Assembly (NCBI RefSeq): GCF_964194155.1
Contig: NC_135907.1
Coordinates: forward strand, 21,080,001 to 21,144,000
Length of the DNA stretch: 64,000 nt
Source: Cetorhinus maximus
Lineage: Eukaryota
Reading direction: 5' to 3'
Numbering within the stretch: position 1 is the stretch's first letter; each line of letters opens with the position of its first letter. The notes under the pieces were generated by a model that was not told the origin of the DNA, did not search any database, and saw only the letters and a program-made list of their open reading frames with translations. Shown piece after piece: positions 739 to 61,616 of the stretch. The position numbers and the translations under genes are program-made.

Positions 739-885
739 CTTGACGTCCTCCAGGATGATCCGGCCTCCACGTTTATTTTGGAATTTCATCAGTTTCTCAG
801 CGTGCTCCCGTTCCTCATGTGACTGCTCCTTGAAGAACTCAGCAAAGTGACGCAGGGCAACATCATCCCGGTCAAAGTAAAAGGA
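739..885 (-). pseudogene. Ferritin copy A: isolated exon 2 (exon 1 missing; exons 3-4 not in window)
   Basis: 147-nt exon with AG/GT encoding [49 protein letters not shown]; cognate promoter at 1428-1590 but no exon 1 sequence between them. Confidence 0.8.
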
Positions 886-1427
886 CTGGAGGGAGAGAAA
901 AAACAGAAGGGAGTCGTCAGGCAGATGTTATCCAATGGGAATGCAAAAATAGTACCAATATCATGGTAGATGAGTTACCCATTCTCTATCTCAATACTTT
1001 GCTTTCAATTAAAGGGGCTTACAGCTTAAGGAAACAATGTTTTCTTGCTAAAGAATTTGTTTCATTAGATGATGATGTTGAAAGACTCTATGAAATAAAC
1101 AAGGCACCTGGTTGTATTAGAAGACGTGAGTGAGCAATAATATTTCTTGGAAGTAGTAGTGATCTCAGCTATCAACCTGCACTTGGGTAAAGAAGGAACT
1201 TGAAGTTAAAGAGGAAAGCAGTTTGTTTTCAGCAGTTTAATATTGTCAGTGGCAAGTGCAGGGATCCAGCTTCAGGAATACCAGACAGGGTTGTCAGCAT
1301 TTTACTCAATTAGAAAATGAGATAAAAACTGGTCAGAACCAATGTTTTACTAATTAATTATCTCATTTTACCCAAGTTAGAAAAGTTGACGCACGCACGA
1401 GCGAGCGAGAGGAAGAGAGAAGCCTTG

Positions 1428-1590
1428 TATTTATACTACTGGACAGGGAATGACATCATCAATGATGATTGACAATCCTGGTTAGCCAATCAAGAATCTG
1501 CCATGAATCCAGGCACCAATTAACAAAGGAGAGTGGGTGGAGTGAGAGACCCAGAGCCAATTAGAGCTTTGGAATACAGGCAGTTTTGGA
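1428..1590 (-). promoter_or_regulatory. Ferritin-type promoter of copy A (TATAAATA plus CCAAT boxes)
   Basis: TATAAATA on minus strand at 1428-1435, TGACATCA and several CCAAT motifs; homologous to the promoters of the other copies. Confidence 0.7.
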
Positions 1591-1609
1591 TGATTATTCT
1601 GTGATTACA

Positions 1610-2720
1610 ATATAGGAACAGGAGGAGGCCATTCTGCCCTCCAGTCTGTTCCACCATTCAATTATATCATGACTGGTCTGTGTCTTAATGCCATTTGTCC
1701 ACCTTGGTTCCATATGCCTTCATAGCCTTAGCTAACAAAAACTACAATCTCTGTTTTGAAATGTTTATTTGATCAAAGTATTTTTGTGGGGGGGACTGTT
1801 CCAAACTTCCATTCTCCTTTATGTGAATAAACATTTCCTAATGTCAGCCCTGAATGGCCAAAATCTAAACATAAGATTATATCCCCTGTTCTAAAGGAAA
1901 TAATTTCTCTCTATTGACCTAATCAAATCTATCAATCATCATCAACATCACAATTATAATCATCCAGTAATCTTTTATGCTCAAGGGAATGCAAGACTAG
2001 TCTATGCAAACTGTCCTCATCATTTAACCCTTTTAGCCCTGGTATCATTCTGGTGAATCTGTGCTCCATCCCCTCCAAGGCTGATATATCAGAACTGAGC
2101 AAAGAACTACAGATGTGTTCCAACCAGAGATTTATGTAACTGTAGCAAAAACCTCCATCCCTTTCTATTCCATGATCCTTGAGATGAAAACTAACATTCT
2201 ATTTGCTTTTTGAACTAACTTCTGTACGTGTGCCTGAGGTTTTAGCAGTTTCTGTATGTGGACCCCTTAATCGCTCTGCACCTCCTCAGTTCCAAGCTCC
2301 TCACTATTTAGAAAACACACTGATTTTTTTATCTTTCTTGGCCCAAAGCGGATGATCTCGCTCTTCCTCACATTGAACTTCATCTACCAGGGTTTTACCT
2401 ACTCACTTAATCAATTCAAGTGACTTTGCAACTTTCTGTTCCCATCTGCAGGACTTATTGTACCCCCGAACTTAGTGTCGACAGCAATCATGGATATTCA
2501 GTTCTCTAACCCTTCATCGATGTCATTTAGAAATTTAATGAAAAGCTGAGGCCCCAGTACAGATCCTGGGGAAGAAAACTAATCACATCTCGACAATTGG
2601 CGTACACTTCCATTATCCCTCTCTCTCTCCCACCCCCTAACCAATTTCCCAACCATATCTAGAGGTTATACCAGATTCCATTTTTCCCCAATAATCTCTG
2701 ACATGGACCCTGTTCAATGA
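1610..2720 (-). mobile_element. CR1-type LINE 3' fragment (degenerate)
   Basis: Starts with a CR1 3'-tail-like sequence (ggaacaggaggaggccattc); minus ORF 1932-2123 DISALEGMEHRFTRMIPGLKGL...LHRLVLHSLE resembles the CR1 ORF2 C-terminus. Confidence 0.7.
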
Positions 2721-2789
2721 AGAATTCAACATTGGTTTTATTGAATTTACTCCAAGGCCCCCTTGTTCAGAGGGAATCTTTTTTTAAAA

Positions 2790-3045
2790 AGTGTCAGCCA
2801 CATTGCTATGGGTCTGGAGTCACACGTAGGCCAGATTTCCTTCCCTAAAAGACATTAGGAACCAAATGGTTTTTAACTACAATTGACAATGGTTTCATGG
2901 TCAGCATTAGACTTTTAAATCCAGATATTTATTGAATTCAAATTCCACCATCTGCCATAGTGAGATTCAAACCAGGGTCCCCAGGGCATTATCCTGAGTC
3001 TCTGGATTACCAGCCCAGTGACAACATCACTATGACACCACCAGG
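2790..3045 (-). mobile_element. tRNA-derived SINE (HE1-like), partial
   Basis: Reverse complement of the SINE at 3350-3700 (gtcactgg..agtaatccagagac..., tgtgactccagacc). Confidence 0.6.
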
Positions 3046-3349
3046 TAATTTCAGATGGTATCAAATATAATTGGATCTACATTAACCAATCACTTGGAGA
3101 ATTGACAGACAACTTGGCAGGATTGGGTTGGTGGTGTTCCAGGATACCAGAATTCAGAATGTTGACCGGATTGACCAGCAGACCATCCACACCAATCTCA
3201 AAAATCAATGACAATTGGGAGGTCAGGTTGGAGGAAATTTTCAAACATTAGTATTGCCTTTGAGGAATAAGCATGGGAGAGGGGGCATTAAACACATGAC
3301 AACTGCCACACTGATTAGTTAAACCTGGGTGTGGTCATTTAGGGAAATC

Positions 3350-3705
3350 TGTATAGTGGTAATGTCACTGGACTAGTAACCCAGAAGCCTAGGCTAATGC
3401 TCTGGGGAATACTGTCCCACCACAATAGCGGGTGGAACTTGAATTTAATTTTAAAAAATCTAATTGGAAGCTAGTCCCAGTAATGGTGACCACCATGAAA
3501 CTGATCAATTGTGTTAAAAACCCATCTTGTTTACCAATACCCTTTGGATAAGGATGACAGATTTTCTTCCCCAAGTCTGGCTTACATGTGACTCCAGACC
3601 CACAGCAATGTGCTTGACTCTTAACTGGTAGAGAAGCCACTCAGTTCAAGGGCATTTAGGGATGGGTAACAATGCCACTGGCAAGAATGGTGTCTCATCC
3701 CATGA
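3350..3705 (+). mobile_element. tRNA-derived SINE (HE1-like)
   Basis: tRNA-like head (tagtggtaatgtcactggactagtaacccaga), central tgtgactccagacccacagcaatg, and a 3' tail (agggcatttagggatggg) shared with the HER1-like LINE fragments. Confidence 0.65.
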
Positions 3706-4349
3706 GAGAGAGAGTTAGAAACCACAGAAAGAGTGGACATTTTAGGAAATCATGAAATAAAATTCCCATTATAGACACACAGAAGCTGATATATCAGTGC
3801 TTGAGGTGCAAACAATCCATCCAAAGACAGAATCCAAAAAAGGTGGTTAATGCTGTATTATATATACACAGGCCTAAACCAGTGAGATTTGTGACAATCT
3901 GAACAGAGTCACTTGAACTGCCCAGACTTATGCACAAGTCTAAATCAGATTCAGGGAAAAGGGACTAGCATAAGCGAAGACACTAATTCACCCCTTCCCC
4001 TGAGAAAACCTCAACTATGACGTTGATCTGGATGTAGGAATAACCCTCCAGTAGAATTGCCGTTTTACAGTTGAAGTCTAACAAAGCTTCTTGGTGAGAA
4101 TTGGGAGATGCAAGCATTTAAATCAAGCTAAGAAATCAGAGAGATGGGGAGAAAAGCATGAAAGCAAAGATGTAGAAAAAAGTCTTAATGGGAAGATGTT
4201 ATTGCTAGGTATCATTACTAATGATTAAAAAGAAAAACAGTTTAAATGAACACTTTTATTTTATATTCAGTAAGAGGAAACTGAACTAGTATTGGGTTAC
4301 ACTTTCATTTCCACAATATAGATCAATAAGTGGGATTTCAAAAACCCAG

Positions 4350-6350
<2,001 letters not shown>

Positions 6351-6391
6351 CTAGAAAGTTCCAGAACTGACCCTTCTAACACAAGCTCTTG

Positions 6392-6545: not shown

Positions 6546-6559
6546 ATTCTGTGATTGCA

Positions 6560-8420: not shown

Positions 8421-8427
8421 TTATACC

Positions 8428-10350: not shown

Positions 10351-10462
10351 AAAATTAGCTGAAGAATTATGGAGATAACAACTAGTTCCATGAATACGGA
10401 TTTATTTCCATAATCAGTAACAGAAATCAGGATTGGATTACAATTCAACTCCAAAATCCCAG

Positions 10463-11055
10463 TCAATGAAGAGTGAGCATGTCCAACAGGTACTCTCCCA
10501 TACCATTCTCAGGGGCTCCCAGTCTCTTCAGGTTGGTGATGTGATCTCCAAGCTTCTTGACCATCTTCACTTGCTCATCCAAGTAGTGAGTCTCCAGGAA
10601 GTCACAAAACTGAAAGAAAGACAATGGGAGAGAAATTAAAGATATTAGAGGGGGTCTTTCCTGGATGAAAATAAGATAAGAACTTTTGTCACGGAGTAAA
10701 AACACTGCTCATGGGTTATGCAGGTAATTCTGGTTAAAATGTGCCCAGGTAGAAAGTCAATTCCAATCAACTGGGAGTGAGTGAGTGACTCAAGAAACAG
10801 ATCTCACAATCTAAATGCCTGGGAACTGGGATCCAGGTCTACAAGGTTTCCATTAGTCATTTACAGTCTTCATTGGAAACCTATATGCAATTCTAGAGTG
10901 AAGGGCAGATTCCAATATCAGCAACTTACATGAGGGTCAGTGTTCCCCAAGGAGAGCTTGTGCAGATCCAGCAGACTCTGGTTCACATTCTTCTCCATCT
11001 GCAGAGCTCTCTGCATTGTCTCCAGACCATTGCTCCACTCATCCTACTCTGGTTT
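10463..11055 (-). pseudogene. Ferritin copy C: exons 3-4 only, premature stop
   Basis: Exon 3 11055-10930 has CAG>TAG at 11046-11044; exon 4 10609-10463 [13 protein letters not shown]...LTLH*; exons 1-2 not found upstream. Confidence 0.88.
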
Positions 11056-12690: not shown

Positions 12691-12794
12691 TCGTAATAAA
12701 CTTGACCAGATTATGAAAAGCCACTTCAGCAAAAGTAACAATTTATTATTAAATTGTAATGAGAGTTAAACCGCAAGATAATTTCAGATTTGAC

Positions 12795-13008: not shown

Positions 13009-14879
<1,871 letters not shown>

Positions 14880-15164: not shown

Positions 15165-17630
15165 TCAGTGGTAGATTCTATGGGGTATCTTGTTTGGGAG
15201 GAAAATCTCAATCTGACCCTAGCTGGCTGAACAAGGAACAGTTTGCTACTGGTGATGAATGAATATTCTTTTTTTTTCTCTTCAAGAACAACTCAATCCT
15301 TCAAACCTGTTTATACCAACTGTTGCAAAATGTAGGAAATCTTTATCAGTCCATTTGATGTTCCAAACATTTCAGTCCAGGAGTCAAATCCATTTCTTGC
15401 TCTGGATACATAGATGAGTTGAAGCTTTATATCCATGGAATTACTAGAAATACACTGGGGGAGCTCACTCCCTTCACCACATACTCCGGAGCTGCTCCTT
15501 TCAGTATTCTGGTGAGCTTTGTGAACAAAAGTAGGAAATAACAGCCGTGCAGACCTGGCTTCTGGGCGCTCTGAGCTCCTGGTACTAAATGGAATTATAA
15601 CTTGGTCATTGAGCAATACTGATATACCATCTTTAACTTGAGGGAGGGGAAGTGGTGATCTTCCTTGTTGGAAGAAGATTGAAATTGGTTCTGAAATCTG
15701 TCTCCAGACTCCCAACTGAATCTAAAATTAGGTTAGACTTTGAAGGGAGAGTAAAAGTTGGCAAACTATAGTTGAGCAAAATCTAATCCTTTGGCTCAGC
15801 AAGGAGTGAATGTAGTCAATTAAAAACAGAAGGTAATACCAAGCATGTTAAATGTTTCACTTAACACACCCTGTTCCATTAAATTCAATACCAGCAGCAC
15901 CTCCATAGATGTCTTTTTGACATTTAGTCCCAGTGGACATTTCATAGCCAATAGGAATCATCCTTTCCAAATCCTACTGCATCTCCATTAGTCTCCTTAA
16001 TCCTCAATGATTGAAGCTTTGTTGCTATGACTGCATTTATCCAATGTTTAACAGTTAATCTTAGGAACCTGGATGAGGACAATGTAACTAGAATCTTCAG
16101 TTATGAGATTGTTTATCATGTTAATGTCTTTATATCTCATGTTTTCATATTCCACAAATGGTAAAGGATGATTCTTGGCATTGTGAGCTTTTCATACCCA
16201 TCACCATCCCCACTCCCTACAGGCTGTGATACTGAATTCAAAGATTCCTGTGGAAAAAATAAATCAATAGTTTCCTCAATCAGTAGCCACAGATCTACAT
16301 CAAAGTTTCTGTTGGCCATTGAGTGACCATGTGATGTCCATCAGTTTGGACAAAGCTCTTTGTGCCCACAGGACATTCACTGTATCTCAGATCCTTGTTG
16401 ACCCTAACAGGTGTAAACACCTGGATACATTTCCTGTTCAGGTGGATCAACTGTGCCCATCGGTGGCGTCTCTCTCGAGTGGCTCGTGCCTGCAGAGTGA
16501 CTGGTGGCTCCAGATGTGAATCACTGTCACCTCCATCTGGCCCAGCTAAACTTGAGTTTTAATCCAAGGAAACACATCTGATCGCCTGATCCAGGACTGA
16601 TCCACTTCTGTAATGAAATGGGATGTGCACACGTGGAATCTCAGTGAAACAGTAACATGAGGGGAAAGAGCCAGAGGGAGAGATGTGGAGAATTATTTTT
16701 AAGCAGTGAGTTGTTGTGATCTGGAAAGCACTGTCTGAAAGGATGGTGGGAACAGATTTAATAACTTTGAGGGAAATGGGTATATACATGAAAATGAAAT
16801 ACATTTGTAAGGTTATTGGTAAAGAGCAGGGGTGTGGGACCAGATGGATAGTTCTTATAAAAAAACCCAGCACAGGGCACATGGGTTGAATGGCCTCCTT
16901 CTGTGCTTTATGAATCTACAGTGAGTTAAAGAGCTTCTGAATATCATTTCATTCAGATTCAAATATTCTCCAACCACTTTGAAAATTGACCATTAAAGGA
17001 CACATCTAACATACAACATTGACAGGCAGGAAAAGACCAGCTTCTCCATAAGGCCTGTCCCAAAACCCACTGCAGCAAATGGAGACGTGTCTGTGGGTGA
17101 CACTGGATTCAGTGATGTTCACTCCCTCTCACTCTCACATTTCCATTTCTCTGTCCAATGGTTGCTTTGAAAATCCCCTCACGATGACTTGATTGCTTTG
17201 AATATTGTTTCAGCTTCATCTTTCCTGGCAAATAACAAACTTGTCCAGATTATGAAAAGCCACTTCAGCAAAAGTAACAAATTATCATTAAATTCAAATC
17301 AGAGCGTTAAACAATGAGGCATTTTCACATTTGAAGAAGGTCAAGGAACCCAAAAGCAGTGACATCATCAAGACAAATCTCCCAAACCTGCCTGTATTCC
17401 AAAGCTCTGATTGGCTCTGGGTCTCACTCCCTCCCCCACAAACCCTCTTCTTTGTTAATTGGTGCCTGGATTCATGGGAGTTCCTGACTGGCTATCGGGA
17501 ATTGTCAATGATCATTGGTGATGTCATTCCCTGTTTGAATGCAGGATGTCCCAGTTGTATAAATACAAGAGCTTGTGTTAGAGGGGATCAGTTTTTGAAC
17601 TTTCTAGGTTATACTGAGCAGTAATATTGA
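15165..17630 (+). repeat. Intergenic spacer of the duplicated ferritin unit
   Basis: Highly similar to about 20485-22950; more diverged copies at about 27220-28480, 49650-55540 and 58450-61510. Confidence 0.85.
17358..17565 (+). promoter_or_regulatory. Promoter of ferritin copy E
   Basis: TGACATCA/TGATGTCA, ATTGG at 17410, 17458 and 17514, TATAAATA at 17558-17565. Confidence 0.7.
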
Positions 17631-17632
17631 AG

Positions 17633-19715
<2,083 letters not shown>

Positions 19716-22956: not shown

Positions 22957-25333
<2,377 letters not shown>

Positions 25334-28487: not shown

Positions 28488-28589
28488 ATGGCTTCCCAAG
28501 TGCATCAGAACTACCACAAGGACTGTGAGGATGCTGTTAACCAGCAGATCAACCTGAAGCTCTATTCCTCCTATGTTTACCTCTCCATG
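28488..28589 (+). pseudogene. Ferritin copy G: promoter plus exon 1 only (E27K), cut in intron 1
   Basis: TATA 28426-28433; [34 protein letters not shown]|gt; intron 1 homology stops at about 28772. Confidence 0.85.
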
Positions 28590-29221: not shown

Positions 29222-30859
29222 TAAACAAAAACAGAATTACCTGGAAAAACTCAGCAGGTCTGGCAGCATCGGCGGAGAAGAAAAGAGTCGACGTTTCGAG
29301 TCCACATGACCCTTCAACAGAACTGAAGTATAGTTAGGAGAGGGGTGAAATATAAGTTGGTTTAAGGTGGAGGGCGGGGGGAGAGAAGTTGAGGGGGGTG
29401 TGGTTGTAGGGACAAGCAAGCAGTGATAGGAGCAGATAATCAAAAGATGTCACAGACAAAAGGATCAAAGAGGTGTTGAAGGTGGTGATATTATCTAAGA
29501 AAAGTGCTAATTAAGAATGGGTGGCAGGACACTCAAGGCACAGCTCTAGTGGGGGTGGGGTGGAAAGACTGACAAGGTATTAGTTGTAGATTTAAAAATA
29601 ATGGAAATAGGTGGGAAAAGAAAAATCTATATAAATTATTGAAAAAAAAACAAAAGGGAGGGGGAAGAAACGGGGTGGGGATGGGGGGAAGGGGAGTTTA
29701 AGATCTAAAGTTGTTGAATTCAATATTCAGCCCGGAAGGCTGTAAAGTGCCTAGTCGGAAGATGAGGTGCTGTTCCTCCAGTTTGCGCTGGGCTTCACTG
29801 GAACAATGCAGCAAGCCAAGGGCAGACATGTGGGCAAGAGAACAGGGTGGAGTGTTAAAATGGCAAGTGACAGGGAGGTTTGGGTCTTTCTTGCGGACCG
29901 ACCGCAGCTGTTCTGCAAAGCGGTCGCCCAGTTTGCGTTTGGTCTCTCCAATGTAGAGGAGACCGCATTGGGAGCAACGAATGCAGCAGACTAAGTTAGG
30001 GGAAATGCAAGTGAAATGCTGCTTCACTTGAAAGGAGTGTTTGGGCCCTTGGACGGTGAGGAGAGAGGAAGTGAAGGGGCAGGTGTTGCATCTTCTGCGT
30101 GGGCATGGGGAGGTGCCATAGGTGGGGGTTGAGGAGTAGGGGATGATGGAGGAGTGGACCAGGGTGTCCCGGAGGGAACGATCCCTACGGAATGCCGTCA
30201 GGGGGGGTGAAGGGAAGATGTGTTTGGTGGTGACATCATGCTGGAGTTGACGGAAATGGCGGAGGATGATCCTTTGAATGCGGAGGCTGGTGGGGTGATA
30301 AGTGAGGACAAGGGGGACCCTATCATGTTTCTGGGAGGGAGGAGAAGGCGTGAGGGCGGATGCGCGGGATATGGGCCGGACACGGTTGAGGGCCCTGTCA
30401 ACGACCGTGGGTAGAAAACCTCGGTTAAAGAAGAAGGAGGACATGTCAGAGGAACTGTTTTTGAAGGTAGCGTCATCAGAACAGATGCGACGGAGGCGAA
30501 GGAACTGAGAGAATGGGATGGAGTCCTTACAGGAAGCGGGGTGTGAGGAGCTGTAGTTGAGGTAGCTGTGGGAGTCGGTAGGCTTGTAATGGATATTGGT
30601 GGACAGACTATCATCAGAAATTGAGACAGAGAGGTCAAGGAAGGGAAGAGAAGTGTCAGAGATGGACCATGTGAAAATGATGGAGGGGTGGAGATTGAAA
30701 GCAAAATTAATAAATTTTTCCAGGTCCCGACGAGAGCATGAATCAGCACTGAAGTAATCATCGATGTACCGGAGAAAGATTTGTGGGAGGGGGTCGGAGT
30801 AGGACTGGAACAAGGAATGTTCCACATACCCCATAAAGAGACAGGCATAGCTGGGGCCC
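29222..30859 (-). mobile_element. Penelope-like element, 5'-truncated copy (RT C-terminus plus GIY-YIG)
   Basis: ORF 30834-29698 with RYIDD, CPRRRCNTC linker and LVCCIRC...YIGET motif; 3' region homologous to 35791-36237. Confidence 0.92.
29284..29326 (-). ncRNA. Minimal type I hammerhead ribozyme-like motif of the PLE
   Basis: Sense strand CAGTT-CTGTTGA-A-GGGTC-atgtg-GACTC-GAAAC-GTC-GACT; core position 6 is non-canonical. Confidence 0.55.
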
Positions 30860-32263: not shown

Positions 32264-33209
<946 letters not shown>

Positions 33210-34565
33210 TGAAGTGGATTATAACTGCACACCCAATGGGGACTACCCTAGATCAAGTGCACTCCCTTAATAATCATCATCTTCACTTGGGTTCAAAGCA
33301 ACCACCTCAGACACTCGTTTGGGTCTAAAGTAGTGAACTACACCTCTCCCAAGGAATACGATTATCAAGAGATATTACCTTCTTCCAGATGGCCAAGTTA
33401 TTTAACAGGCTAAGTTATAATCACACAGATATTACAGGTGTCCGCAAGTCTCTCTTTAAAAAAAAATGCAATCTTCCCACTTTCAAAAAAATAGAAGGTG
33501 GGTTCTTAAACGGCATAGATTAGACTACGAGACATTATACATTAAATTTGTAAATAAGTTAGTGAAGAATTATTTAACATACAATAGAGTAGATTAGTGC
33601 ATGACTATAAAAAGATAAAGAATAGTCTTTGTTCTAAGAGAATCCAGTGAAAAAGACTTAATACTATGCTGCGGTGAAAATTACTTTGAATGTTTGATGG
33701 ATATCCATAACTAATGTGTTATCTTAAATCTCCAAATGGCTCAGTTGAGTAGTGGGGCTCATACTGAGTGTGGCAGTCAGAGCGCAAAGCTGGGGTCATC
33801 CAAAATTACACTATTTGTCTTTAACTTCAATGCCCCTATCACCCCTGGGTTGCTGACCTACATCAGTCCCTGATCAAGTAATGGTTTGATTTTAAAATTC
33901 TCATCGTTCTTTAATTGCTTCATGGCCATCCCTCCCTATCTCTCATCTTCTCCAACCTTCCAAGATCTATTGGTGGCTGTCTCTTTAGCATCCCCCTACA
34001 CACCTTGAAACCTGCCTTTTTGACTATCTATCCTTAGTTGTGCCATAGATGTTTTATGATGCCCCTGCAAACCACTGCGTTATTAAGTTATGGACAGCTG
34101 CATGCCACCTTTGTAATGAGAAGTATCAACCCCAACTTCTTACCTACAAGAGAAATCTGAGGGTTTTTTTATTGCTTGGAAATGGCTAGAAGTCACTGGA
34201 CAATTTTAGGTGTTTAACAGTGTTACAGTAATTTATCTTTTGTTGTATTGGGCAATTATTGTTGCCATTTATTTTACACATATTAACTACAATCAGGATG
34301 TGATTTATTGCAAAGTACACAGAATCAAGATTACACCATGACATAATTAGAAGGTCCAATGAATGTCAAGACTCAATCCCATGATCTGTTACATAATAAC
34401 TGTTCAAGTTGTTACAGCCAAAGCAACCACTCAATCTAACAAGGAGGCAGACTTCAATTCATTTTTTAATAATCCATTTATTCAGTTATTTCACATCAAG
34501 AGCACCAAATAGAATCATTCCCTAAAGGACAGAGTTAGGGTCTCATGACATAATCCCCACAGTCA

Positions 34566-34739
<174 letters not shown>

Positions 34740-35847
34740 TTACACCCAGCATCAGATAAGAATCTGAGCTCCCCTTCAAGAGTTGGATTTTTTTTTTGCA
34801 CCTTCTAGTCAAGTGATACAATTGAGATTGATGGAATTACTGCATTAGACTGATGCACAGTAGGTGGGGAGTACCTGTCCACAATTGGCCAACCTCACTG
34901 CTGATCCCAGCCCCAAAACTGAACCCAGGAGGGACACCACAACAACCAATAGAGGTGAGGTCATTTGAACTGGCTCAAAGACAAGTTCCCATCAACTCCA
35001 CTTTACCCAAAAACCCACATTAAAACAGCTTACATGAGGGTCAGTGTTGCCAGAGGAGAGCTTGTGCAGATCCAGCAGACTCTGGTTCACATTCTTCTCA
35101 ATCTGCAGAGCTCTCTGCATTGCCTCCAGACCATTGGCCCAATCATCCTGCTCTGGCTTCTAAAAGAGGAAAGGCAGGCAGCTCATTTACAATGGATTAA
35201 TGAAAATACATGAGAAAGTACAAGAAAAACAGGGATGAAAAAGCAGGTAGAAGCTCAAATTACCAGAAACCAGCGTCAAAATCACAGGTTAATTTTTGGA
35301 TGTGGGAGTCATTGGCTAGGTCAGCATTTATTGTTCATCCCCAATTGCCTTGAGGGGGAAAGACCTTCTGTAGTCCATGTGGTGTAGGTACACAGCACCA
35401 CATTATTAAATTCAGAATAGCAGAATCAAGTTAAACCAAGAAGCATTAAAATAAAATTAGTCTAAGGGGATCAAGGCAGGCATTCACTCATTCCATTAAA
35501 CTCAACCTTGACATCCTCCAGGATGATCCAGCCTCCACGTTTATTCTGGAATTTCATCAGTTTCTCAGCGTGTTCCCGTTCCGCATGTGACTGCTCCTTG
35601 AAGGACTCAGCAAAGTGACGCAGGGCAACATCATCCCGGTCAAAGTAAGAGGACTGCAGGTAGAGACAAAAATGGAAAGGAAGAGTCAGAATTAGACCCA
35701 AATCTCAACCATGGCCAACTAAAGAAAAAGAAATGGCATCTAGGTCGATAAGTTACTATTCTCTACCTCAAACACCTTGTATTCAATTATAAAAACAGAA
35801 TTACCTGGAAAAACTCAGCAAGTCTGGCAGCATCGGCGGAGAAGAAA

Positions 35848-35890
35848 TCAGTCAACGTTTCGAGCCCTCATGGCCCTTCAGCAGAACTGA
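35848..35890 (-). ncRNA. Minimal hammerhead ribozyme-like motif (PLE 3' copy)
   Basis: TCAGTT-CTGCTGA-A-GGGCC-atgag-GGCTC-GAAAC-GTT-GACTGA on the element sense strand. Confidence 0.55.
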
Positions 35891-36237
35891 AGCATAGTTT
35901 CAACAAGGGAGAAATATAAATTGGTTTAAGGTGGGTGGGGGGGAAGAGACACATTGAGGGTGTGGTGTGAGCAGACAATCAAAAGATGTCAGAGACAAAA
36001 GGGTCAAAGAGGTGCCGAAGGTGGTGGTCTTTGTCTGAGAAAAGTGCTAACCAAGAATGCAAGACAGGACACCCAAAGTACAGCTCTAGTGGGGGTGGGG
36101 TGGAAAGACTAAAGGTTTTAGTTTTAGATTTAAAAATAATGGAAATAGGTGGGGAAAGAAGAATCTATATAGATTATTGAAAAAAAAGGTGGGTGGGGGG
36201 GGGAAAGAAACGGGGTGGGGATGGGGGGAGGGGGAGT

Positions 36238-38991
36238 TCAAGATCTAAAGTTGTTGAATTCAATATTCAGCCCAGAAGGCTGTAAAGTGCCTAGTCGGAA
36301 GATGAGGCGCTGCCCCCCCAGTCCGCGCTGGGCTTCACCGGAACAATGCAGCAAGCCAAGGACAGACACGTGGGCAAGAGAACAGGGCGGAGCGCTAAAA
36401 TGGCAAGCGACAGGGAGGTTTGGGTCTTTCCTGCGGACAGACCGCAGGTGCTCCGCAAAACGGTCGCCCAGCCTGCGCCCGGTCTCTCCAATGCAGAGGA
36501 GACCGCACCGGGAGCAACGAATGCAGTAGACCAAGTTAGGGGAAATGCAAGTGAAATGCTGCTTCACTTGAAAGGAGTGTTTGGGCCCTTGGACGGTGAG
36601 GAGAGAGGAAGCGAAGGGGCAGGTGTTGCATCTTCTGCGTGGGCATGGGGAGGCGCCATAAGTGGGGGTTGAGGAGTAGGGGGTGATGGAGGAGTGGACC
36701 AGGGTGCCCCGGAGGGAACGATCCCTACGGAATGCTGTCAAGGGGGGTGAAGGGAAGATGTGTTTGGTGGTGGCATCATGCTGGAGTTGGCGGAAATGGC
36801 GGAGGATGATCCTTTGAATGCGGAGGCTGGTGGGGTGATAAGCGAGGACAAGGGGGACCCTATCATGTCCCTGGGAAGGAGGAGAAGGCGTGAGGGAGGA
36901 CGCGCGGGATATGGGCCGGACACGGTTGAGGGCCCTGTCAACGACCGTGGATGGAAAACCTCGGCCAAGGAAGAAGGAGGACACGCCCGAGGAGCTGTCC
37001 CTGAAGGTAGCGTCATCAGAACAGATGCGACGGAGGCGAAGGAACTGAGAGAATGGGATGGAGTCTTTACAGGAAGCGGGGTGTGAGGAGCTGCAGCCGA
37101 GGCAGCCGTGGGAGTCGGCAGGCCCGCAATGGATATTGGTGGACAGTCTATCATCAGAAATTGAGACAGAGAGGTCAAGGAAGGGAAGAGAAGTGTCAGA
37201 GATGGACCATGTGAAGATGATGGAGGGGTGGAGATTGGAAGCAAAATTAATAAATTTTTCCAGGTCCCGACGAGAGCATGAAGCAGCACCGAAGTAATCA
37301 TCGATGTACCGGAGAAAGAGTTGTGGGAGGGGGCCGGAGTAGGACTGGAACAAGGAATGTTCCACATACCCCATAAAGAGACAGGCATAACTGGGGCCCA
37401 TGCGGGTACCCATAGCCACACCTTTTATTTGGAGGAAGTGAGAGGAGTTAAAGGAGAAATTGTTCAGTGTGAGAACAAGTTCAGCCAGACGGAGGAGAGT
37501 AGTGGTGGATGGGGATTGTTGGGGCCTCTGTTCAAGGAAGAAGCTAAGGGCCCTCAGACCATCCTGGTGGGGGATGGAGGTGTAGAGGGATTGGACATCC
37601 ATGGTGAAGAGGAAGCGGTTGGGGCCAGGGAACTGGAAATTGTTGATGTGACGTAAAGTGTCAGAGGAATCACGGATGTAGGTGGGAAGGGACTGGACAA
37701 GGGGAGAGAGAAGGGAGTCAAGATAATGAGAAATGAGTTCCGTGGGGCAGGAACAGGCTGACACGATCGGTCTGCCAGGACAGTTGTGTTTGTGGATTCT
37801 GGGTAGGAGGCAGAAGCGGGCCGTCCGAGGTTGGGCGACTATCAAGTTGGAAGCTGTGGGAGGAAGATCTCCAGAGGAGACGAGGTCAGCGACAGTCCTG
37901 GAAACAACGGCTTGATGTTCTGTGGTGGGGTCATGGTCCAGGGAGAGGCAGGAGGAAACGTCTGCGAGCTGACGCTCAGCCTCCGCGAGGTAGAGGTCAA
38001 TGCGCCAGACAACAACAGCACCACCCTTGTCAGCGGGTTTGATGACAATGTTGGGGTTGGACCTGAGAGAACGGAGTGCAGTGAGTTCAGAGAGAGACAG
38101 ATTAGAATGGGTGAGAGGAGCAGAGAAATTGAGACGGCTAATGTCACGCCGACAGTTCTCAATGAAAAGATCAAGAGAAGGTAAGAATCCAGAGGGAGGG
38201 GTCCAAGTGGAGGGAGAATATTGGAGGTGGGTAAAAGGATCCGTTGAACGGGGAGAGGACTCCTGCCCAAAGAAGTGAGCACGGAGACGAAGACGGCGGA
38301 AGAAGAGTTCAGCATCATGCCGAGCCCGAAATTCATTGAGATGAGGGCGTAAGGGTATGAAACTAAGTCCTTTGCTGAGCACTGAACGTTCAGCATCGGA
38401 GAGGGGAAGGTCAGGGGGTATAGTGAATACGCGGCTGGGGCTGGGATTGGAAGATGGGGTGAGGACGGAGGGACAAGCAGGGGTGGAGGGTCCCCGATGG
38501 GTGTTGGAGTCGATGAGTTGTTGGAGCTTGCGTTCCTTAGCACTTGAGAGAAAGAGAAAAAGTTTCTTGTTGAGGCGACGGATGAGGCGAAGAATAAAAT
38601 GAAACTGGGGGCACGCGCAGCTTTGAAAAAGGGTGCGGCGGTGCTGCTGGAGGGAGAGGTCAAGTGTGTTCATATGGCGGCGCATGGCACTGAGTGTGGA
38701 TCTCAGAATGCGACGGGAACAGCAGTCCGAGAAACGTTTTATGTCCCGGAGATACCTGTAATCCTGGGTGGGTTCGAAACAAGAGGGATGGAATTTCAGT
38801 TGAAATCCACGTGGGGTGAGTCGGAGACGGAGACAGTCACTGAGAAAGGAGATATGGCTGTGAAAGCGGGTTTTAGTAAACACCTTGTCAAACACCAGGA
38901 GAGAAATGGAAAGCAATGAAGGTGAGCAGGGCAGAAGAGACAGTCGGAAATCCTGTCGGAGGACAGAACCATACTTCTTCCAAGAGGGCAT
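36238..38991 (-). CDS. PLE (Neptune-like) reverse transcriptase / GIY-YIG endonuclease, 917 aa
   Basis: KPADKG, PGRPIVS, DVQSLYT, GVAMG, RYIDD RT motifs; CxxxxCxxC linker; VYCIRC...(Y>C)IGET...RFAEH...HF endonuclease motifs. Confidence 0.93.
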   Translation of the reverse strand: MPSWKKYGSVLRQDFRLSLLPCSPSLLSISLLVFDKVFTKTRFHSHISFLSDCLRLRLTPRGFQLKFHPSCFEPTQDYRYLRDIKRFSDCCSRRILRSTLSAMRRHMNTLDLSLQQHRRTLFQSCACPQFHFILRLIRRLNKKLFLFLSSAKERKLQQLIDSNTHRGPSTPACPSVLTPSSNPSPSRVFTIPPDLPLSDAERSVLSKGLSFIPLRPHLNEFRARHDAELFFRRLRLRAHFFGQESSPRSTDPFTHLQYSPSTWTPPSGFLPSLDLFIENCRRDISRLNFSAPLTHSNLSLSELTALRSLRSNPNIVIKPADKGGAVVVWRIDLYLAEAERQLADVSSCLSLDHDPTTEHQAVVSRTVADLVSSGDLPPTASNLIVAQPRTARFCLLPRIHKHNCPGRPIVSACSCPTELISHYLDSLLSPLVQSLPTYIRDSSDTLRHINNFQFPGPNRFLFTMDVQSLYTSIPHQDGLRALSFFLEQRPQQSPSTTTLLRLAELVLTLNNFSFNSSHFLQIKGVAMGTRMGPSYACLFMGYVEHSLFQSYSGPLPQLFLRYIDDYFGAASCSRRDLEKFINFASNLHPSIIFTWSISDTSLPFLDLSVSISDDRLSTNIHCGPADSHGCLGCSSSHPASCKDSIPFSQFLRLRRICSDDATFRDSSSGVSSFFLGRGFPSTVVDRALNRVRPISRASSLTPSPPSQGHDRVPLVLAYHPTSLRIQRIILRHFRQLQHDATTKHIFPSPPLTAFRRDRSLRGTLVHSSITPYSSTPTYGASPCPRRRCNTCPFASSLLTVQGPKHSFQVKQHFTCISPNLVYCIRCSRCGLLCIGETGRRLGDRFAEHLRSVRRKDPNLPVACHFSAPPCSLAHVSVLGLLHCSGEAQRGLGGQRLIFRLGTLQPSGLNIEFNNFRS

Positions 38992-39138
38992 TTTTTTGAA
39001 GAGAGGTGGCAGTCAATCAAACACAAAGATAAAAACAAAAAGCTAAAAGCTACTGCGGATGCTGGAAATCCAAAACAAAATAAAAACAGAATTACCTGGA
39101 AAAACTCAGCAAGTCTGGCAGCATCGGCGGAGAAGAAA

Positions 39139-39181
39139 TCAGTCAACGTTTCGAGCCCTCATGGCCCTTCAGCAGAACTGA
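39139..39181 (-). ncRNA. Minimal hammerhead ribozyme-like motif (pseudo-LTR copy, upstream of the ORF)
   Basis: Identical to 35848-35890. Confidence 0.55.
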
Positions 39182-41121
39182 AGCATAGTTTCAACAAGGG
39201 AGAAATATAAATTGGTTTAAGGTGGGTGGGGGGGAAGAGACACATTGAGGGTGTGGTGTGAGCAGACAATCAAAAGATGTCAGAGACAAAAGGGTCAAAG
39301 AGGTGCCGAAGGTGGTGGTCTTTGTCTGAGAAAAGTGCTAACCAAGAATGCAAGACAGGACACCCAAAGTACAGCTCTAGTGGGGGTGGGGTGGAAAGAC
39401 TAAAGGTTTTAGTTTTAGATTTAAAAATAATGGAAATAGGTGGGGAAAGAAGAATCTATATAGATTATTGAAAAAAAAGGTGGGTGGGGGGGGGAAAGAA
39501 ACGGGGTGGGGATGGGGGGAGGGGGAGTTCAAGATCTAAAGTTGTTGAATTCAATATTCAGCCCAGAAGGCTGTAAAGTGCCTAGTCGGAAGATGAGGCG
39601 CTGCCCCCGCATGGGCCCCAGTTATGCCTGTCTCTTTATGGGGTATGTGGAACATTCCTTGTTCCAGTCCTACTCCGGCCCCCTCCCACAACTCTTTCTC
39701 CGGTACATCGATGATTACTTCGGTGCTGCTTCATGCTCTCGTCGGGACCTGGAAAAATTTATTAATTTTGCTTCCAATCTCCACCCCTCCATCATCTTCA
39801 CATGGTCCATCTCTGACACTTCTCTTCCCTTCCTTGACCTCTCTGTCTCAATTTCTGATGATAGACTGTCCACCAATATCCATTGCGGGCCTGCCGACTC
39901 CCACGGCTGCCTCGGCTGCAGCTCCTCACACCCCGCTTCCTGTAAAGACTCCATCCCATTCTCTCAGTTCCTTCGCCTCCGTCGCATCTGTTCTGATGAC
40001 GCTACCTTCAGGGACAGCTCCTCGGGCGTGTCCTCCTTCTTCCTTGGCCGAGGTTTTCCATCCACGGTCGTTGACAGGGCCCTCAACCGTGTCCGGCCCA
40101 TATCCCGCGCGTCCTCCCTCACGCCTTCTCCTCCTTCCCAGGGACATGATAGGGTCCCCCTTGTCCTCGCTTATCACCCCACCAGCCTCCGCATTCAAAG
40201 GATCATCCTCCGCCATTTCCGCCAACTCCAGCATGATGCCACCACCAAACACATCTTCCCTTCACCCCCCTTGACAGCATTCCGTAGGGATCGTTCCCTC
40301 CGGGGCACCCTGGTCCACTCCTCCATCACCCCCTACTCCTCAACCCCCACTTATGGCGCCTCCCCATGCCCACGCAGAAGATGCAACACCTGCCCCTTCG
40401 CTTCCTCTCTCCTCACCGTCCAAGGGCCCAAACACTCCTTTCAAGTGAAGCAGCATTTCACTTGCATTTCCCCTAACTTGGTCTACTGCATTCGTTGCTC
40501 CCGGTGCGGTCTCCTCTGCATTGGAGAGACCGGGCGCAGGCTGGGCGACCGTTTTGCGGAGCACCTGCGGTCTGTCCGCAGGAAAGACCCAAACCTCCCT
40601 GTCGCTTGCCATTTTAGCGCTCCGCCCTGTTCTCTTGCCCACGTGTCTGTCCTTGGCTTGCTGCATTGTTCCGGTGAAGCCCAGCGCGGACTGGGGGGGC
40701 AGCGCCTCATCTTCCGACTAGGCACTTTACAGCCTTCTGGGCTGAATATTGAATTCAACAACTTTAGATCTTGAACTCCCCCTCCCCCCATCCCCACCCC
40801 GTTTCTTTCCCCCCCCCACCCACCTTTTTTTTCAATAATCTATATAGATTCTTCTTTCCCCACCTATTTCCATTATTTTTAAATCTAAAACTAAAACCTT
40901 TAGTCTTTCCACCCCACCCCCACTAGAGCTGTACTTTGGGTGTCCTGTCTTGCATTCTTGGTTAGCACTTTTCTCAGACAAAGACCACCACCTTCGGCAC
41001 CTCTTTGACCCTTTTGTCTCTGACATCTTTTGATTGTCTGCTCACACCACACCCTCAATGTGTCTCTTCCCCCCCACCCACCTTAAACCAATTTATATTT
41101 CTCCCTTGTTGAAACTATGCT

Positions 41122-41164
41122 TCAGTTCTGCTGAAGGGCCATGAGGGCTCGAAACGTTGACTGA
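41122..41164 (+). ncRNA. Minimal hammerhead ribozyme-like motif (inverted copy)
   Basis: Identical to 35848-35890 in opposite orientation. Confidence 0.55.
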
Positions 41165-43189
41165 TTTCTTCTCCGCCGATGCTGCCAGACTTGCTGAGTT
41201 TTTCCAGGTAATTCTGTTTTTATTTTGTTTTGGATTTCCAGCATCCGCAGTAGCTTTTAGCTTTTTGTTTGTATTCAATTATGCTTAGTTATTTAAAAAA
41301 GACTAAGAAGTCACTTCAAATCAAGTCCAAAGTCATTGTGTCATGCAGCCTAATTATAACGTGCACTGCAAGCTCAATATTGTGCTTCATCATACTCACT
41401 TGTACAGATGGTCATGGAATCTACCACAGGCAGAAAATGGGATAATTTGCTTAACTACCTACCGTTTAAATCTGGGTGTCAGAGATGAATGAAATAGCCA
41501 CCATTACGTTCAAAGACCTTCTACAACAGGTGGGCTGTAGACAAATCATTTCCTCACCTCCCAGAAACATACATATTCTCCTATAAATCCAGGATTAACA
41601 GCACCCTTTCAAACATTTAAGCGCACTTGAATTAACCCAGTAGGGATGCAGAATGAAAGCTAGCCATGAAGCTGTTACTGATTAAGCTTTGATTGCAATA
41701 CTGTATTAACATATTTCTTAATTACTCAACTTTAAATCATGGCCATATCTAGAAATAAGAGGAACATTGACACTGTCACTTTCATTAGGATTACTCATTT
41801 TAGTACACAACATGAGAGCTAAAAATTTCATTAGAAGTTCTAGTATAGAAAATGAAGTTACAAATTTACAATATTCAGAATGCTACAGCAACAAACTACA
41901 GGAGTTTATTATTGATCATAAAAGAGTAGAAAGAAATTGCATTATATTACAACTTTAAAAAAAACATTACATATGGACCAACAGGCTATTGAAATAGTTC
42001 AAAAAATATAAAACTCACCATGGAGAGGTAAACATAGGAGGAATAGAGCTCCAGGTTGATCTGCTTGTTAACAGCATCCTCACAATCCTCCGTGGTAGTT
42101 CTGACGCACTTAGGAAACCATTCTAACCTACTAAACCAACACAATTTTCTCCCAAGTTTTTACACTTAAGTTAGTGAGACCAAACCATCTTTAATACCAG
42201 GGCCGACATTCCAGCTGATGAGTAACTATTCCCAGTAACCAATCAGAACTCTATGCCCATCAGAGGCCCCCAATCAAAAATGAAATGCAGTGGAGGTGAT
42301 AATGTGGGACAGGGAACGTTTTGATTGGATGATTTGAGCAGACAAGTGCAAAATACTGGACAGGGGAAGCAAAAATAACCAATAACGTTCTTCATGAACA
42401 GGACTCTTTCCTAAAGTTAAACAGGAGACACTGTGTTACCCCAGTGTCATCAGGTCTTTGGCCACAGGATGCAGATGTTTTGGGATGGAGGGGGAGGGAG
42501 TGGTGCAAGTTTCAGTTGGAGGATCTGACTCGCTAGTCCTGACAAAATCAGCAATTTGTCATTCTAGGACTGCTTATGCTCATGGGGTTCCAGGTGGGGT
42601 TGGGGGTGGGGTGGAGGCCGGGGATGGGGGTGGGGTGGGGAGTGGTGTCACTCTGTTTGCCCGCTTCTCTCCCACAGTCTTGTCGACCTCTGGGCAGCCA
42701 GTAGAGAGAGCGTATGTGGCATTCACCAGTACATTTGATGCCATCCGCGGCCAGGCGGCATCTAGGATATAGAGTGTCTTGCAGACGTCAATAATAAGAT
42801 CCTGATTTACTAGGCAAGGTACCCTTTAGTTGTAATGACACTTATCCTCACATTGGCACCTATTTAGTTGACTGGATGATCCCATGTTAGGAGTGGCCTA
42901 AAAGCAAGATATTTCACTCCTGATCTTGGCCTTCTGGTGTAGAGGGAAACAGGAGGTTGGAGGACCTCCTCATGGTTCAGCCCCATGGGCTTGGCCTCCC
43001 ATAGGTCCAGCAGAGCGTAGTCGAGGGGATTGTTTAGCCTGGCTGCCCATGTCTCTTTTGTGGCTATGCCTGTGCCTGGGTGTACCTGGTCAGGTGGTAC
43101 ATAATGCCTATCTATAACTTGAGATTCCTGCGATCGATGGGCATCAGAGGGACTGAAACGTATAGGTAATAATGAACAGGAGGTTTTCC

Positions 43190-46268: not shown

Positions 46269-49250
<2,982 letters not shown>

Positions 49251-55545: not shown

Positions 55546-57972
<2,427 letters not shown>

Positions 57973-59572
57973 ACTGACTGCAGGGAACAATGTTTAGTAT
58001 CATAGGTCAAAGGGCTCATGATACTGACAGCTTGTGTTGTACAGGGAGCTGTTGAGACCTGGGCTCCATTCTGAATGTACTAACTGTCAAATTTCAATAT
58101 GGACTGGATTTTGTCTTTTTGTCTTTTTGAATGTTTGTCTAATTTCTCATAAATGCTGCTTTTAAAAAATCACCAGGAAGGGCATTGGTTTGTGGGACCA
58201 GTGCAATTATAACAAATTGGATTTTGACTAACTCTAATTTGGTGGAGTCCTTAATTCTGTGCATTTCAATATATTGCAGCAAGATAGTAACGCTCTAATA
58301 CAACAGTCTGCATTGATCTAGTGCCTTTGTTTGTTTGGCATCCAAATTTGACACCTGAGCCCTTTTTTTCAACACCTCCTCCATTTCAGGACAGTAATAG
58401 TTTTTTTTAAGAAGTCTCTTGTTTGAGAGGAAGTCTGAGACTTGAGCCTTGCTGGCTGAAGGAACTGTTGCCATGGGTAATGACTGTCCTCTGCCTTTTG
58501 CATCAATAGCAACTCTCAACCCTTCAAGCTGATCAAATACTGCCGCAGTTAGTATTTGAAATACAAGAGATGCTTTAGCATTTCAGTCCAAAAATCTAAT
58601 CTACTTTCTATTCTGGATAGGGTAGTTTGGATAGGTGTTTATAATCCATGGAGTACCTTGTGGAGTGCTTGCTCACTTAACCAAATGTCCTGTGGGCTCC
58701 ATTTAATGTTCTGGTGAGCCTTGAGTGAAGTTGCAAATAATAGCCATGCAGGTTCTGGGAGCTCCCTAAACTTCTGGTACTAAAGGGAAATACAACTGAG
58801 CCACTGGGCAATACTGACTGAGTTGTCATGTTGACTTACTGACCCTCTTAAGGGAGGGGAAAGTAGTGATCTCCTTGTCAGGGGGGAAGACTGAAATTAG
58901 CTCTGAAACTGTCTCTAGGCTCCCAATTTGAGTAGAACTTTTGAAGGGAAAGTACAAGTTGGCAAAATGCAGTTGACAAAATCTAATGGTTCAAGGAGTG
59001 GATTTAGTCAATTAAAAACAAATAGCTTGACACTGAGCAAGTTTAATATTCCACTTAACTGACTCCTGCTCTCTTAATTTATAAGACTCAATACCAGTAG
59101 CTCCTCCATTAATGTCTCTGTTTTACATTTAGTCCCAGTGACCATTTCACACCCAGTGGGAATCATCCTTTCCAAATCCTGCTGGTTCTCCATTGGTCTC
59201 CTTCACCCCTGTGAATGATTGAAGCTTGGTTACTATGACTGCATTTATCCAATGTTTAACAGTTAATTTCAGGAACTTAGTTGAGAACTGCAGTGAGAAC
59301 AATGAAATTAAAGTCTTCAGTTATTAGAATCTGTCATGTAAATGTCTTTGCATCTCTCAAACTTCCATGAAAATCCACAAATGGTGAAGGATGATTCCCA
59401 GCACTGAGCTTTTCAAACCCATCCCCATTCCCTACAGGCTGTGATACTGAATTCAGAGTTTCCTGTGGAAAGGATCAATTAATAGGTCCCTCAGAGCCAG
59501 TAACCACAGACCTTCATCAAAGTCTCTGGTGGCCATTGAGTGACTGTGTGATGTCCATCAGTTTGGATAAAA

Positions 59573-60449
59573 TGTCATGAACATATAATTTTTCATGATA
59601 TTGTGATTTATTATAAAAGTGGGTTAATAGTGAGGTTTATGGCTTAGTTTTGCTGTGTGTGCAATTTAATTGAATTGGAGACAGCTAGGCTGGAGGCTTT
59701 GAGTTATCAGAAAGGTAGCTAGGTTTAAAATGCTAAACGTGTAAACATGGCTAAGTTTTAGAATGTGAAGTGAGTTAAATTTGCATTTTTAGATAAATAA
59801 ATTAGGTTAGTTTGAATTTCAAGAGATGGCAGGATGTTACACTTAGCTAGAAGGAGCCAAGACAAACCATGTTTATTTTTCCCAAAGGTTATTGATAAAA
59901 TTAGTACCATGAAAAGATTTCTATTATGAGAGGGATAAAGTTCCAAAAACATATGGGAACAATGGAATTTACATTAAAAAGGAAGAAACATGTATAAAGG
60001 AGATGAGGCTATGTGTCAGAAGGGAGAAGGATTTCTAAGACCTAACACAAACGTGAGAAGCCTCCAGCCTCTGTGCATCAAGTTGCTGTCTACAGGAACT
60101 GAAGCTGAGAGTGCAACCGTCCAGAGTATGATGTTGCTTTGCTTGGGTCTATTTAAATCTATTTGTTTTTACAGTTGCCTTAACAGAGGGGTAACTGTGA
60201 GCTAGATTAATTAGGGGGTTTAGGACTTACATACGTCTACAAATTACTATTGTAATATGTGCTTGAAATCTTTTGATAAATTTTAATTTAGTTTTCTACA
60301 AACTCTGAAGTCATGGTAGTCTCATTACACCTGAATTCAAGGCACACTCTCGAAATAAAATGCAAATTGCAAAACAGTTGTGACCGTGTGATCAAGTTTC
60401 CCTCATGGATTTGATCTGCCTACCACTCATCATCTGCCACATCATTACA
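59573..60449 (+). mobile_element. Solo LTR (877 bp) with 4-bp TSD
   Basis: TGTCATGA...CATTACA ends, TSD aaaa, inserted in the spacer site ttggacaaagccctttgtg; related 3' fragment at about 46790-46928. Confidence 0.7.
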
Positions 60450-61513
60450 AAAACCCTTTGTGACCACAGGACATTAACAGCATCTCGGATCATTTTTGAC
60501 CAGAACAGGTGTGAATACCCAGATACATTTTCTGCTCAGGTCGATCAACTGTGCCCATCGGTGCTATCTCTCCTGAGTGGCTCATGCCTATAGCGTGATT
60601 AGTCGCTCCAGATGTGAGTCACTGCCACGTCCATCTGGCCCATCTAAACCAGAGTTTCATTCCAAGGTAACACATCTCATCACCTAATCCGGGATTGATC
60701 CATTTCTGTAATGAAACCAGATGTCAACACATGGGATCTCAGAGAAACAGTAACGTGAGCGAGAAGATCCAGAGGGAGAGATGAGGAAAATTCTTTTGAA
60801 GCTGTTGTGATCTGGAATGCACTGTCTGAAAGGATGGTGGAAGCAGAGTGAAGAGGATATTGGATATATGCATGAAGAGGGAACAATAACATACAACATT
60901 GATGGGCAGGAAAAGACCAGCTTCTCCATAAGGCCTGTCCCAAAACACACTGCAGCAAATGGAGACGTGTCTGTGGGTGACACTGGATTCAGTGATGTTC
61001 ACTCCCTCTCACTCTCACATTTCCATTTCTCTGTCCAATGGTTGCTTTGAAAATCCCCTCACGACGACTTGATTGCTTTGAATATTGTTTCAGCTTCACC
61101 GTTCCTGGCAAATAACAAACTTTTCCAAATTATGAAAAGCCACTTCAGCAAAAGTAACAAATTATCATTAAATTCAAATCAGAGCGTTAAACAACGAGAC
61201 ATTTTCACATTTGAAGAAGGTCAAGGAGCCCAAAAGCAGTGAAATCATCAAGACAAATCTCCCCAATGTGCCTGTATTCCAAAGCTCTGATTGGCTCTGG
61301 GTCTCACTCCCTCCCCCACAAACCCTCTCCTCTGTTAATTGGTGCCTGGATTCATGGGAGGTTCCTGACTGGCTATCGGGAATTGTCAATCATCATTGGT
61401 GATGTCATTCCCTGCTTGAAGACAGGATGTCCCAGTTGTATAAATACAAGAGCTTGTGTTAATGAGGATCAGTTCTAGAGCCTTCTAGGTGATTGTGAGC
61501 AGAAATAGTGAAG

Positions 61514-61616
61514 ATGGCTTCCCAAGTGTGTCAGAACTACCACAAGGACTGTGAGGATGCTGTTAACAAGCAGATCAACCTGGAGCTCTTATTCCTCCTA
61601 TGTTTACCTCTCCATG
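61514..61616 (+). pseudogene. Ferritin copy L: exon 1 with +1 frameshift; remainder outside the window
   Basis: TATA 61439-61446; exon is 103 nt (ctcTtattcc) ending ATG|gtgagt. Confidence 0.8.

Follow-up and report, generated by a model that had tools for sequence, protein, structure and literature searches.

A tandem ferritin array without iron-responsive elements in Cetorhinus maximus, its retrocopies, and exons that are more alike than introns

Why does a shark chromosome carry many ferritin genes side by side, a number of them dead, and why do the exons of these genes differ so much less than their introns? These questions are raised by a 64,000-nt stretch of the Cetorhinus maximus genome (hereafter, the window), which spans positions 21,080,001-21,144,000 of contig NC_135907.1 (C30) in a 4.0-Gb assembly (GCF_964194155.1); with the flanks that we fetched, the sequence came to 364 kb in total. 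The answer that we favor, with somewhat better than even confidence, is that the window belongs to an array of M/H-type ferritin genes that lacks iron-responsive elements (IREs) and was transcribed in the germline or early embryo; the array likely stocks oocytes with ferritin independently of cell iron, and its exons are likely kept alike by short-tract gene conversion. The expansion itself is already published and is shark-wide. What this analysis adds is the loss of the IRE, the retrocopy record, and the exon-limited homogenization, which together sharpen the expansion into a testable model of egg provisioning.

Self-comparison and exon mapping identified 12 ferritin units between positions 739 and 61616 of the window, five of them open four-exon genes and seven broken, which is the count that the initial annotation had reached from the letters alone. 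The five open units have AG/GT splice sites and an uninterrupted frame (173 aa in one unit, 176 aa in four), and the lesions of the broken units are as varied as that annotation had stated: exons are missing, splice sites are gone, stops and frameshifts interrupt the frame, and a 21-bp duplication and rearrangement also occur. Compared with the reference copy (unit 5), the window exons align with 91-99% identity, apart from two lesioned exons at 80-84%, and tblastn E values reach down to 6e-30. The window covers the leftmost third of a tandem array that comprises 37 units on C30, including three scraps; 17 units are open and 20 are broken or scraps. The array had been expected to run off both ends of the window. 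To the right, it does continue for ~131 kb, but to the left only three exon-4 scraps were found, all within 3.2 kb, and the other 97 kb that we fetched on that side is free of ferritin exons. At its right end, the array adjoins three divergent ferritin genes (D1, D2, and D3), and an L-like fourth (D4) lies 30 kb further. Satellites of array-type units occur on C2 (seven units, two open) and on C15, where none of the four units found in 20 kb is open. Both the array and its retrocopies include two C-terminal classes (173 and 176 aa), which differ in their 3' untranslated region (UTR) families; examples are the units at window positions 4353 and 10466 and six open copies outside the window.

We are virtually certain that the tandem array is real. 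The chance that it reflects uncollapsed haplotypes or mis-joined repeats seems negligible, even though two long blocks to the right of the window are nearly identical (97.1% over 7.2 kb and 96.3% over 3.5 kb). Haplotype duplication was rejected for the window itself, where no pair of ferritin units is ≥96% alike over 600 bp, introns of different units diverge by 18-34%, and every dead unit has a lesion of its own; moreover, there is not a single N in the 364 kb. The window copies thus passed the check for assembly duplicates that had been proposed at the outset. Similar arrays are found in many shark assemblies, and proteins labelled Cetorhinus maximus at NCBI include exact matches to two array proteins encoded outside the window.

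Based on an Rfam search, no IRE occurs in the window at E ≤10, nor in the array loci fetched, whereas D3 and the true FTH1 gene gave IRE matches of 42.6 and 42.7 bits, respectively. In our own stem-loop scan, an IRE was detected in 0 of 38 array leaders versus two of five other genes (again D3 and FTH1). A decayed IRE was also considered and rejected, as none of the 38 leaders contains a stem-loop with a CAG(U/A)G loop. The 5' leader element of ferritins regulated by iron regulatory proteins (IRPs) is therefore missing from the array, a loss that the initial annotation had overlooked. A ferritin mRNA without an IRE cannot be held back at low iron, as is established for the IRE/IRP system; array mRNA would thus escape IRP repression, and its output would be set by promoter and copy number.

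In 31 of the 38 array leaders, a TATAAAT box lies 49-79 nt 5' of the ATG, behind a common CCAAT/TGATGTCA module. The promoter of unit 5 (17361-17632, plus strand) exemplifies this module, with CCAAT-like boxes, TGATGTCA, TATAAAT at -75, and a short leader without an IRE. Among the retrocopies, the two whose long leaders are cleanest start 29 and 31 nt 3' of the TATA box, which suggests a leader of ~45 nt; seven of eight near-full-length retrocopies start ≤47 nt from the ATG, including five that start closer to it than the two placed by the TATA box. At C30:21,194,418-21,214,917, four successive array copies lack TATAAAT and differ from the others in their upstream region, which may reflect another type of promoter or a leader exon further upstream; three of these copies are open and are nearest to the majority sequence.

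The census of retrocopies was made with a non-array ferritin query and is a sample, in that 150 of 290 candidates were scored and three matches lie beyond the 38 dispersed loci listed. Assigned by best nucleotide match, these 38 loci comprise 29 array-type copies, eight from FTH1, and one from D3; among them, none derives from D1, D2, D4, or a second ferritin array on C30. An exon junction is spanned by 26 of the 29 array-type retrocopies, and nine have a poly(A) tail. Because heritable retrocopies require mRNA in the germline or early embryo, the array must have been transcribed and spliced there, and we consider its expression in one of these settings highly probable. One array-type retrocopy (L061, C2:157,530,534-157,531,055) is full-length, has no stop inside the match, and could be a working retrogene. 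Four sequencing runs were mapped to the region from promoter to intron 3 of unit 4, and some of the resulting contigs were H-type by their loose ends. A GT..AG joint between exons 1 and 2 was recovered in three of the four runs; these come from other organisms, their status as RNA is a guess, and one of them has an array-type leader end. The fourth run, whose species label is that of the DNA runs with the best matches, gave no coverage of the exons and speaks neither for nor against expression; a search of sequencing runs had listed no RNA run among the matches.

The exons of the array have diverged far less than their introns. Among the 19 open copies, p distance is 0.048 across coding sequence and 0.048 at four-fold degenerate sites, with a synonymous divergence (dS) of 0.072 and a nonsynonymous-to-synonymous ratio (dN/dS) of 0.60. 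Alignable introns differ by p of 0.17-0.24, and four-fold divergence levels off at 0.03-0.05 regardless of intron distance; the intron values refer to alignable pairs only, as global alignment of all 171 pairs (p of 0.28) comes near the floor given by shuffled sequence (0.35). In the 34 pairs with alignable introns, the step in divergence sits at the exon edges. Exons in these pairs differ by 0.01-0.09 and most intron bins by 0.12-0.25, but bins upstream of exon 3 by 0.07-0.14; leaders differ by 0.19-0.28, 3' UTRs by 0.17-0.23, and the promoter core by 0.06-0.08. The homogenized state includes dead copies, with dead exons (n = 64) lying 3.4% and live exons (n = 76) 2.8% from the majority sequence. 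Unit 2 and a copy at a distance of 121 kb have exactly the same exon 3 but introns that differ by ≥24%. Between the array and either D1-D3 or the second array, dS is 0.8-1.3; silent sites do diverge, then, where exchange should be blocked.

Low silent-site divergence next to high intron divergence argues for conversion among exons, a pattern that selection on the protein alone does not predict, and we think it fairly probable, judging from these comparisons, that exon-limited gene conversion operates on top of birth and death. The initial annotation had read the locus as birth-and-death evolution. In part this stands, given the 17 intact units of 37 on C30, the many pseudogenes, and the duplicates of mixed age, but the silent sites fit gene conversion better. 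Under the birth-and-death model of Nei and Rooney, silent divergence is reportedly expected near intron divergence; here, four-fold divergence is ~0.05 and intron divergence ~0.2 (0.17-0.24 among alignable pairs). A classical version of that model, in which copies evolve independently under purifying selection on protein or codons and the dead ones died recently, is in our view unlikely, although it would fit the high count of broken units and scraps on C30 (20 of 37), the 75 of 140 variants that occur in a single copy, and a quick tree in which white shark copies are interspersed with those of Cetorhinus maximus. A dN/dS of 0.6 means weak selection on individual copies, and both the distant twin of unit 2 exon 3 and the equal divergence of the three youngest pairs at four-fold sites (0.021) and introns (0.022, few sites) argue against independent copies. 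Several observations nevertheless weigh against conversion. A recombination test like the pairwise homoplasy index was not significant (P = 0.089; incompatibility of 0.145 within exons and 0.212 between them). The C2 copies share the four-fold plateau on another chromosome, which conversion between nearby tandem copies does not explain, and the dead copies could simply have died recently, mimicking uniformity of dead exons. A bolder form of homogenization, in which germline cDNA rewrites live and dead exons across three chromosomes within an iron-blind egg ferritin program, would account for homogenization that ends at exon edges, reaches C2 and C15, and covers dead copies, and the 29 retrocopies show that array mRNA is reverse-transcribed. 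We regard this RNA-templated conversion as improbable; the UTRs are not homogenized, the promoter core is conserved too, and exact intron loss was found in 0 of 48 array units.

Retrocopies cannot tell ovary from testis or embryo. We prefer the oocyte because of a published report in another shark: in the available text of a preprint, expression of the Greenland shark cluster is described as ovary-specific (bioRxiv 10.1101/2024.09.09.611499). Oocyte stocking is thus a reasonably likely main role of the array. Among the roles that had been guessed initially, the oocyte store gained ground from the retrocopies and from that report, whereas immune and structural uses gained no support. In the model that we propose, synthesis from IRE-free mRNA would be independent of iron and driven by promoter and gene dosage, and the resulting stock of ferritin would store iron and buffer oxidants in large, yolky eggs. 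Selection would act on the pooled output of the array, leaving individual copies to drift or die, while units would be made and broken by duplication, inversion, and retroelement insertion. Selection would also hold the exons similar enough for mutual conversion, with introns and UTRs drifting and dropping out of it; conversion would then occur at the DNA level, restricted to the parts that selection keeps alike. Against this model stand several facts: no window copy has transcription evidence in Cetorhinus maximus; FTH1 has been more productive per template gene (eight retrocopies from one gene versus 29 from ~19 open genes); one retrocopy aligns to 70 nt 5' of the ATG, upstream of the predicted start; and a ferroxidase residue is missing from four of the 19 open copies. 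The available text of Yang et al. 2026 (PMC13214024) also describes fin and blood transcripts of some copies, so that expression is not strictly ovarian. The same observation could favor a somatic system, such as has been put forward for the Greenland shark, for antioxidant defense, protection from ferroptosis, or immune iron withholding under stress transcription, with which IRE loss is compatible as with any transcription-driven use, and for which the snailfish tandem of 14 fthl27 copies, accompanied by a cell assay in the text available (PMC10746142), offers a precedent. Such a somatic role nonetheless appears quite unlikely, in view of the ovary-specific report cited above, retrocopies derived mostly from array-type mRNA, and a clade common to short- and long-lived sharks.

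The distinction matters, as others have looked to the expansion for a clue to Greenland shark longevity, via ferroptosis. If the array instead provisions eggs blindly to iron in all sharks, lifespan should be no guide to copy number, which should instead track the size of the egg, its yolk load, or the mode of reproduction. The locus would also be a compact vertebrate case of exon-limited homogenization over exons of 100-150 bp, and near-identical exons here do not mark a copy as young or functional.

The array protein matches PF00210 (128.9 bits) and has the animal four-exon ferritin structure. Its best matches in the structure database are M ferritins (PDB 4mjy, 1mfr, and 1bg7; E of 1e-77), although the margin over H chains is small (262 vs 253 bits). 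Like these amphibian and teleost M ferritins, it is 176 aa long and colinear, with the same ferroxidase residues; unlike them, it belongs to a chondrichthyan clade of its own and has no IRE. We take the ferroxidase set to be E27, Y34, E61, E62, H65, E107, and Q141 in human H numbering. All seven residues are present in 15 of the 19 open copies, including four of the five in the window, which suggests that most open copies encode ferroxidase-competent ferritins of H/M type. The array also shares four exons, a ferroxidase centre, and ~73% aa identity with FTH1, but the latter has an IRE and is a distinct gene that maps to C9, next to a bestrophin gene.

A careful tree of 38 chosen rows, from which the long row D4 was left out, places the array proteins in a starred chondrichthyan clade (97/95) with a Callorhinchus gene, outside the H clade; a union of the two clades is not rejected (p-AU of 0.206). 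The array clade includes proteins of Carcharodon, Heptranchias, Pristiophorus, Chiloscyllium, and Heterodontus. Row P0111, though labelled nematode, sits among reptile light chains and was not kept as outgroup. A larger tree of 107 rows was built by a quick method only; in it, the teleost fth1b protein belongs to the H clade rather than to the shark array, for which 'FTH1b' may thus be a misleading name. The majority protein is 91-95% identical to those of the seven other sharks compared. The expansion had first been taken as lineage-specific, a view that does not survive the presence of array-type proteins in sharks of at least five orders, their grouping with a chimaera gene, and the published accounts of the expansion.

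Those accounts, in the text available, describe 155 and 179 copies in work on Greenland and white shark ferritin clusters, three clusters being syntenic with white shark (bioRxiv 10.1101/2024.09.09.611499), and sharks that are generally richer in 'FTH1b', with 59 copies in Greenland shark (PMC13214024). In the parts of both sources that we draw on, these clusters resemble the array in their intron-bearing tandem copies, in having one large and some small clusters, and in truncated copies with exons 3-4 only, and sharks carry more copies than rays or chimaera; the array here is smaller (37 units, 17 open). It falls in one clade with the expanded ferritins of other sharks. The words IRE, iron-responsive, and conversion do not occur in the main text of either source, though the supplements may list this species or leader features, and a further preprint (10.1101/2025.02.19.638963) makes no mention of ferritin. 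Our literature search, beyond whose reach most subscription papers lay, turned up no account of shark ferritins that covers IRE loss, retrocopies, or conversion. The hadal snailfish fthl27 tandem is likewise an amplification, but the available text portrays it as recent, species-specific, and expressed in most tissues (PMC10746142), unlike the old, shark-wide array. Ferritin is stocked in the eggs of amphibians, a snail, and a schistosome according to the available part of PMC1488847, as we propose for the array, and a title cited there refers to schistosome ferritin mRNAs without IREs; that part reports no large tandem arrays, and the array proteins, unlike egg and yolk ferritins, have no signal peptide.

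Along the window, unit 1 (739-1605, minus strand) is dead; its TATA promoter lies at ~1427-1605, exon 1 is deleted directly after the TATA box, and exon 2 is orphaned at 739-885. Unit 2 (4353-6332, minus) is open at 173 aa, in the short C-terminal class, with H65N at the ferroxidase site and a TATA box 67 nt 5' of the ATG. Unit 3 (10454-11055, minus) is dead and retains only exons 3-4, with a stop in exon 3. The next two units are open at 176 aa on the plus strand. Unit 4 (13009-14879) has a complete ferroxidase set, H118Y and E134K at the three-fold channel, and an internally deleted promoter; unit 5 (17633-19715) has seven of seven ferroxidase residues, in exons of 102, 147, 126, and 156 nt (17633-17734, 18825-18971, 19154-19279, and 19560-19715). 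Unit 6 (22957-25333, plus) died with a +1 frameshift in exon 2, a lost acceptor, and the 21-bp duplication in exon 3, but it retains an exon 4 equal to the array majority, and over the 3.4 kb upstream it is 93% like unit 5. Unit 7 (28488-28589, plus), also dead, consists of promoter and exon 1 only, intron 1 joining inverted spacer DNA at ~28780. Unit 8 (32264-33216, minus) is dead, with decayed exons 2-4, three deletions in exon 2, and splice sites lost. Dead unit 9 (34563-42121, minus) combines open exons 2-4 (35653-34563) with an exon 1 (42019-42121) that has a stop, a +1 frameshift, and no TATA box. Units 10 (46269-49250) and 11 (55546-57972), both on the plus strand and open at 176 aa, have complete ferroxidase sets, with E134K in unit 11. 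Unit 12 (61514-61616, plus) is dead, with a +1 frameshift in exon 1; its exons 2-4 lie past the window end, and exon 2 there has lost 8 bp.

A young, full-length retroelement of 5.5 kb (35791-41268, minus) sits in intron 1 of unit 9, with an open 924-aa frame at 36238-39012, a 1618-bp inverted copy that is 100% identical, and a 14-bp target duplication. From its anatomy, we presume it to be Penelope-like; the 924-aa frame matches RVT_1 at E = 1.8e-6, just under the curated cut-off, and a GIY-YIG motif was seen by eye only, as Pfam gave no GIY-YIG match. Related pieces recur further along the array and at 29223-30859 (minus), where an older, truncated Penelope-like piece is 90% like the young element. 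That the retroelement killed unit 9 was not established, given that exon 1 bears its own stop and frameshift.

Among the neighboring ferritin genes, D1 (C30:21,283,451-21,292,182) is a single divergent copy directly beside the array, with E61K, H65Q, and no IRE. D2 (C30:21,299,582-21,310,343) has four exons; translation from its first in-frame ATG would prepend 58 residues that are rich in Arg and include no acidic ones, resembling a mitochondrial presequence. It is a candidate intron-bearing mitochondrial ferritin. The divergent L-like D4 (C30:21,345,846-21,365,404) has E107Q, Q141S, and no IRE in the 300 nt upstream. The second array (C30:15.84-15.91 Mb) comprises at least 10 units without IREs, whose CCAAT/TGATGTCA/TATA promoter is related to that of the main array. 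The copy that we examined is L-like (E62K); this array groups weakly with reptile light chains (89/93) and has no retrocopies in the sample. The two arrays possibly pair into an oocyte heteropolymer, against which the second array gave 0 of 38 retrocopies though it was itself the query.

FTH1 presumably lies tail-to-tail with BEST1 as a conserved arrangement, and the true FTH1 on C9 does adjoin a bestrophin gene; no bestrophin was found on C30, so the array does not show the synteny of an FTH1 orthologue. The FTL/M-ferritin locus, by contrast, we take to have GYS1, RUVBL2, and BAX as chromosome neighbors. At family level only, the array (21.1-21.3 Mb) shares its chromosome with genes of all three kinds, namely GYS (25.9 Mb), the TIP49 family (19.8 Mb), and the Bcl-2 family (25.4 Mb), at distances of 1.3-4.6 Mb. 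Glycogen synthase genes number three in this genome (C9:88.7 Mb, C12:53.2 Mb, and C30:25.9 Mb), one more than the two of mammals.

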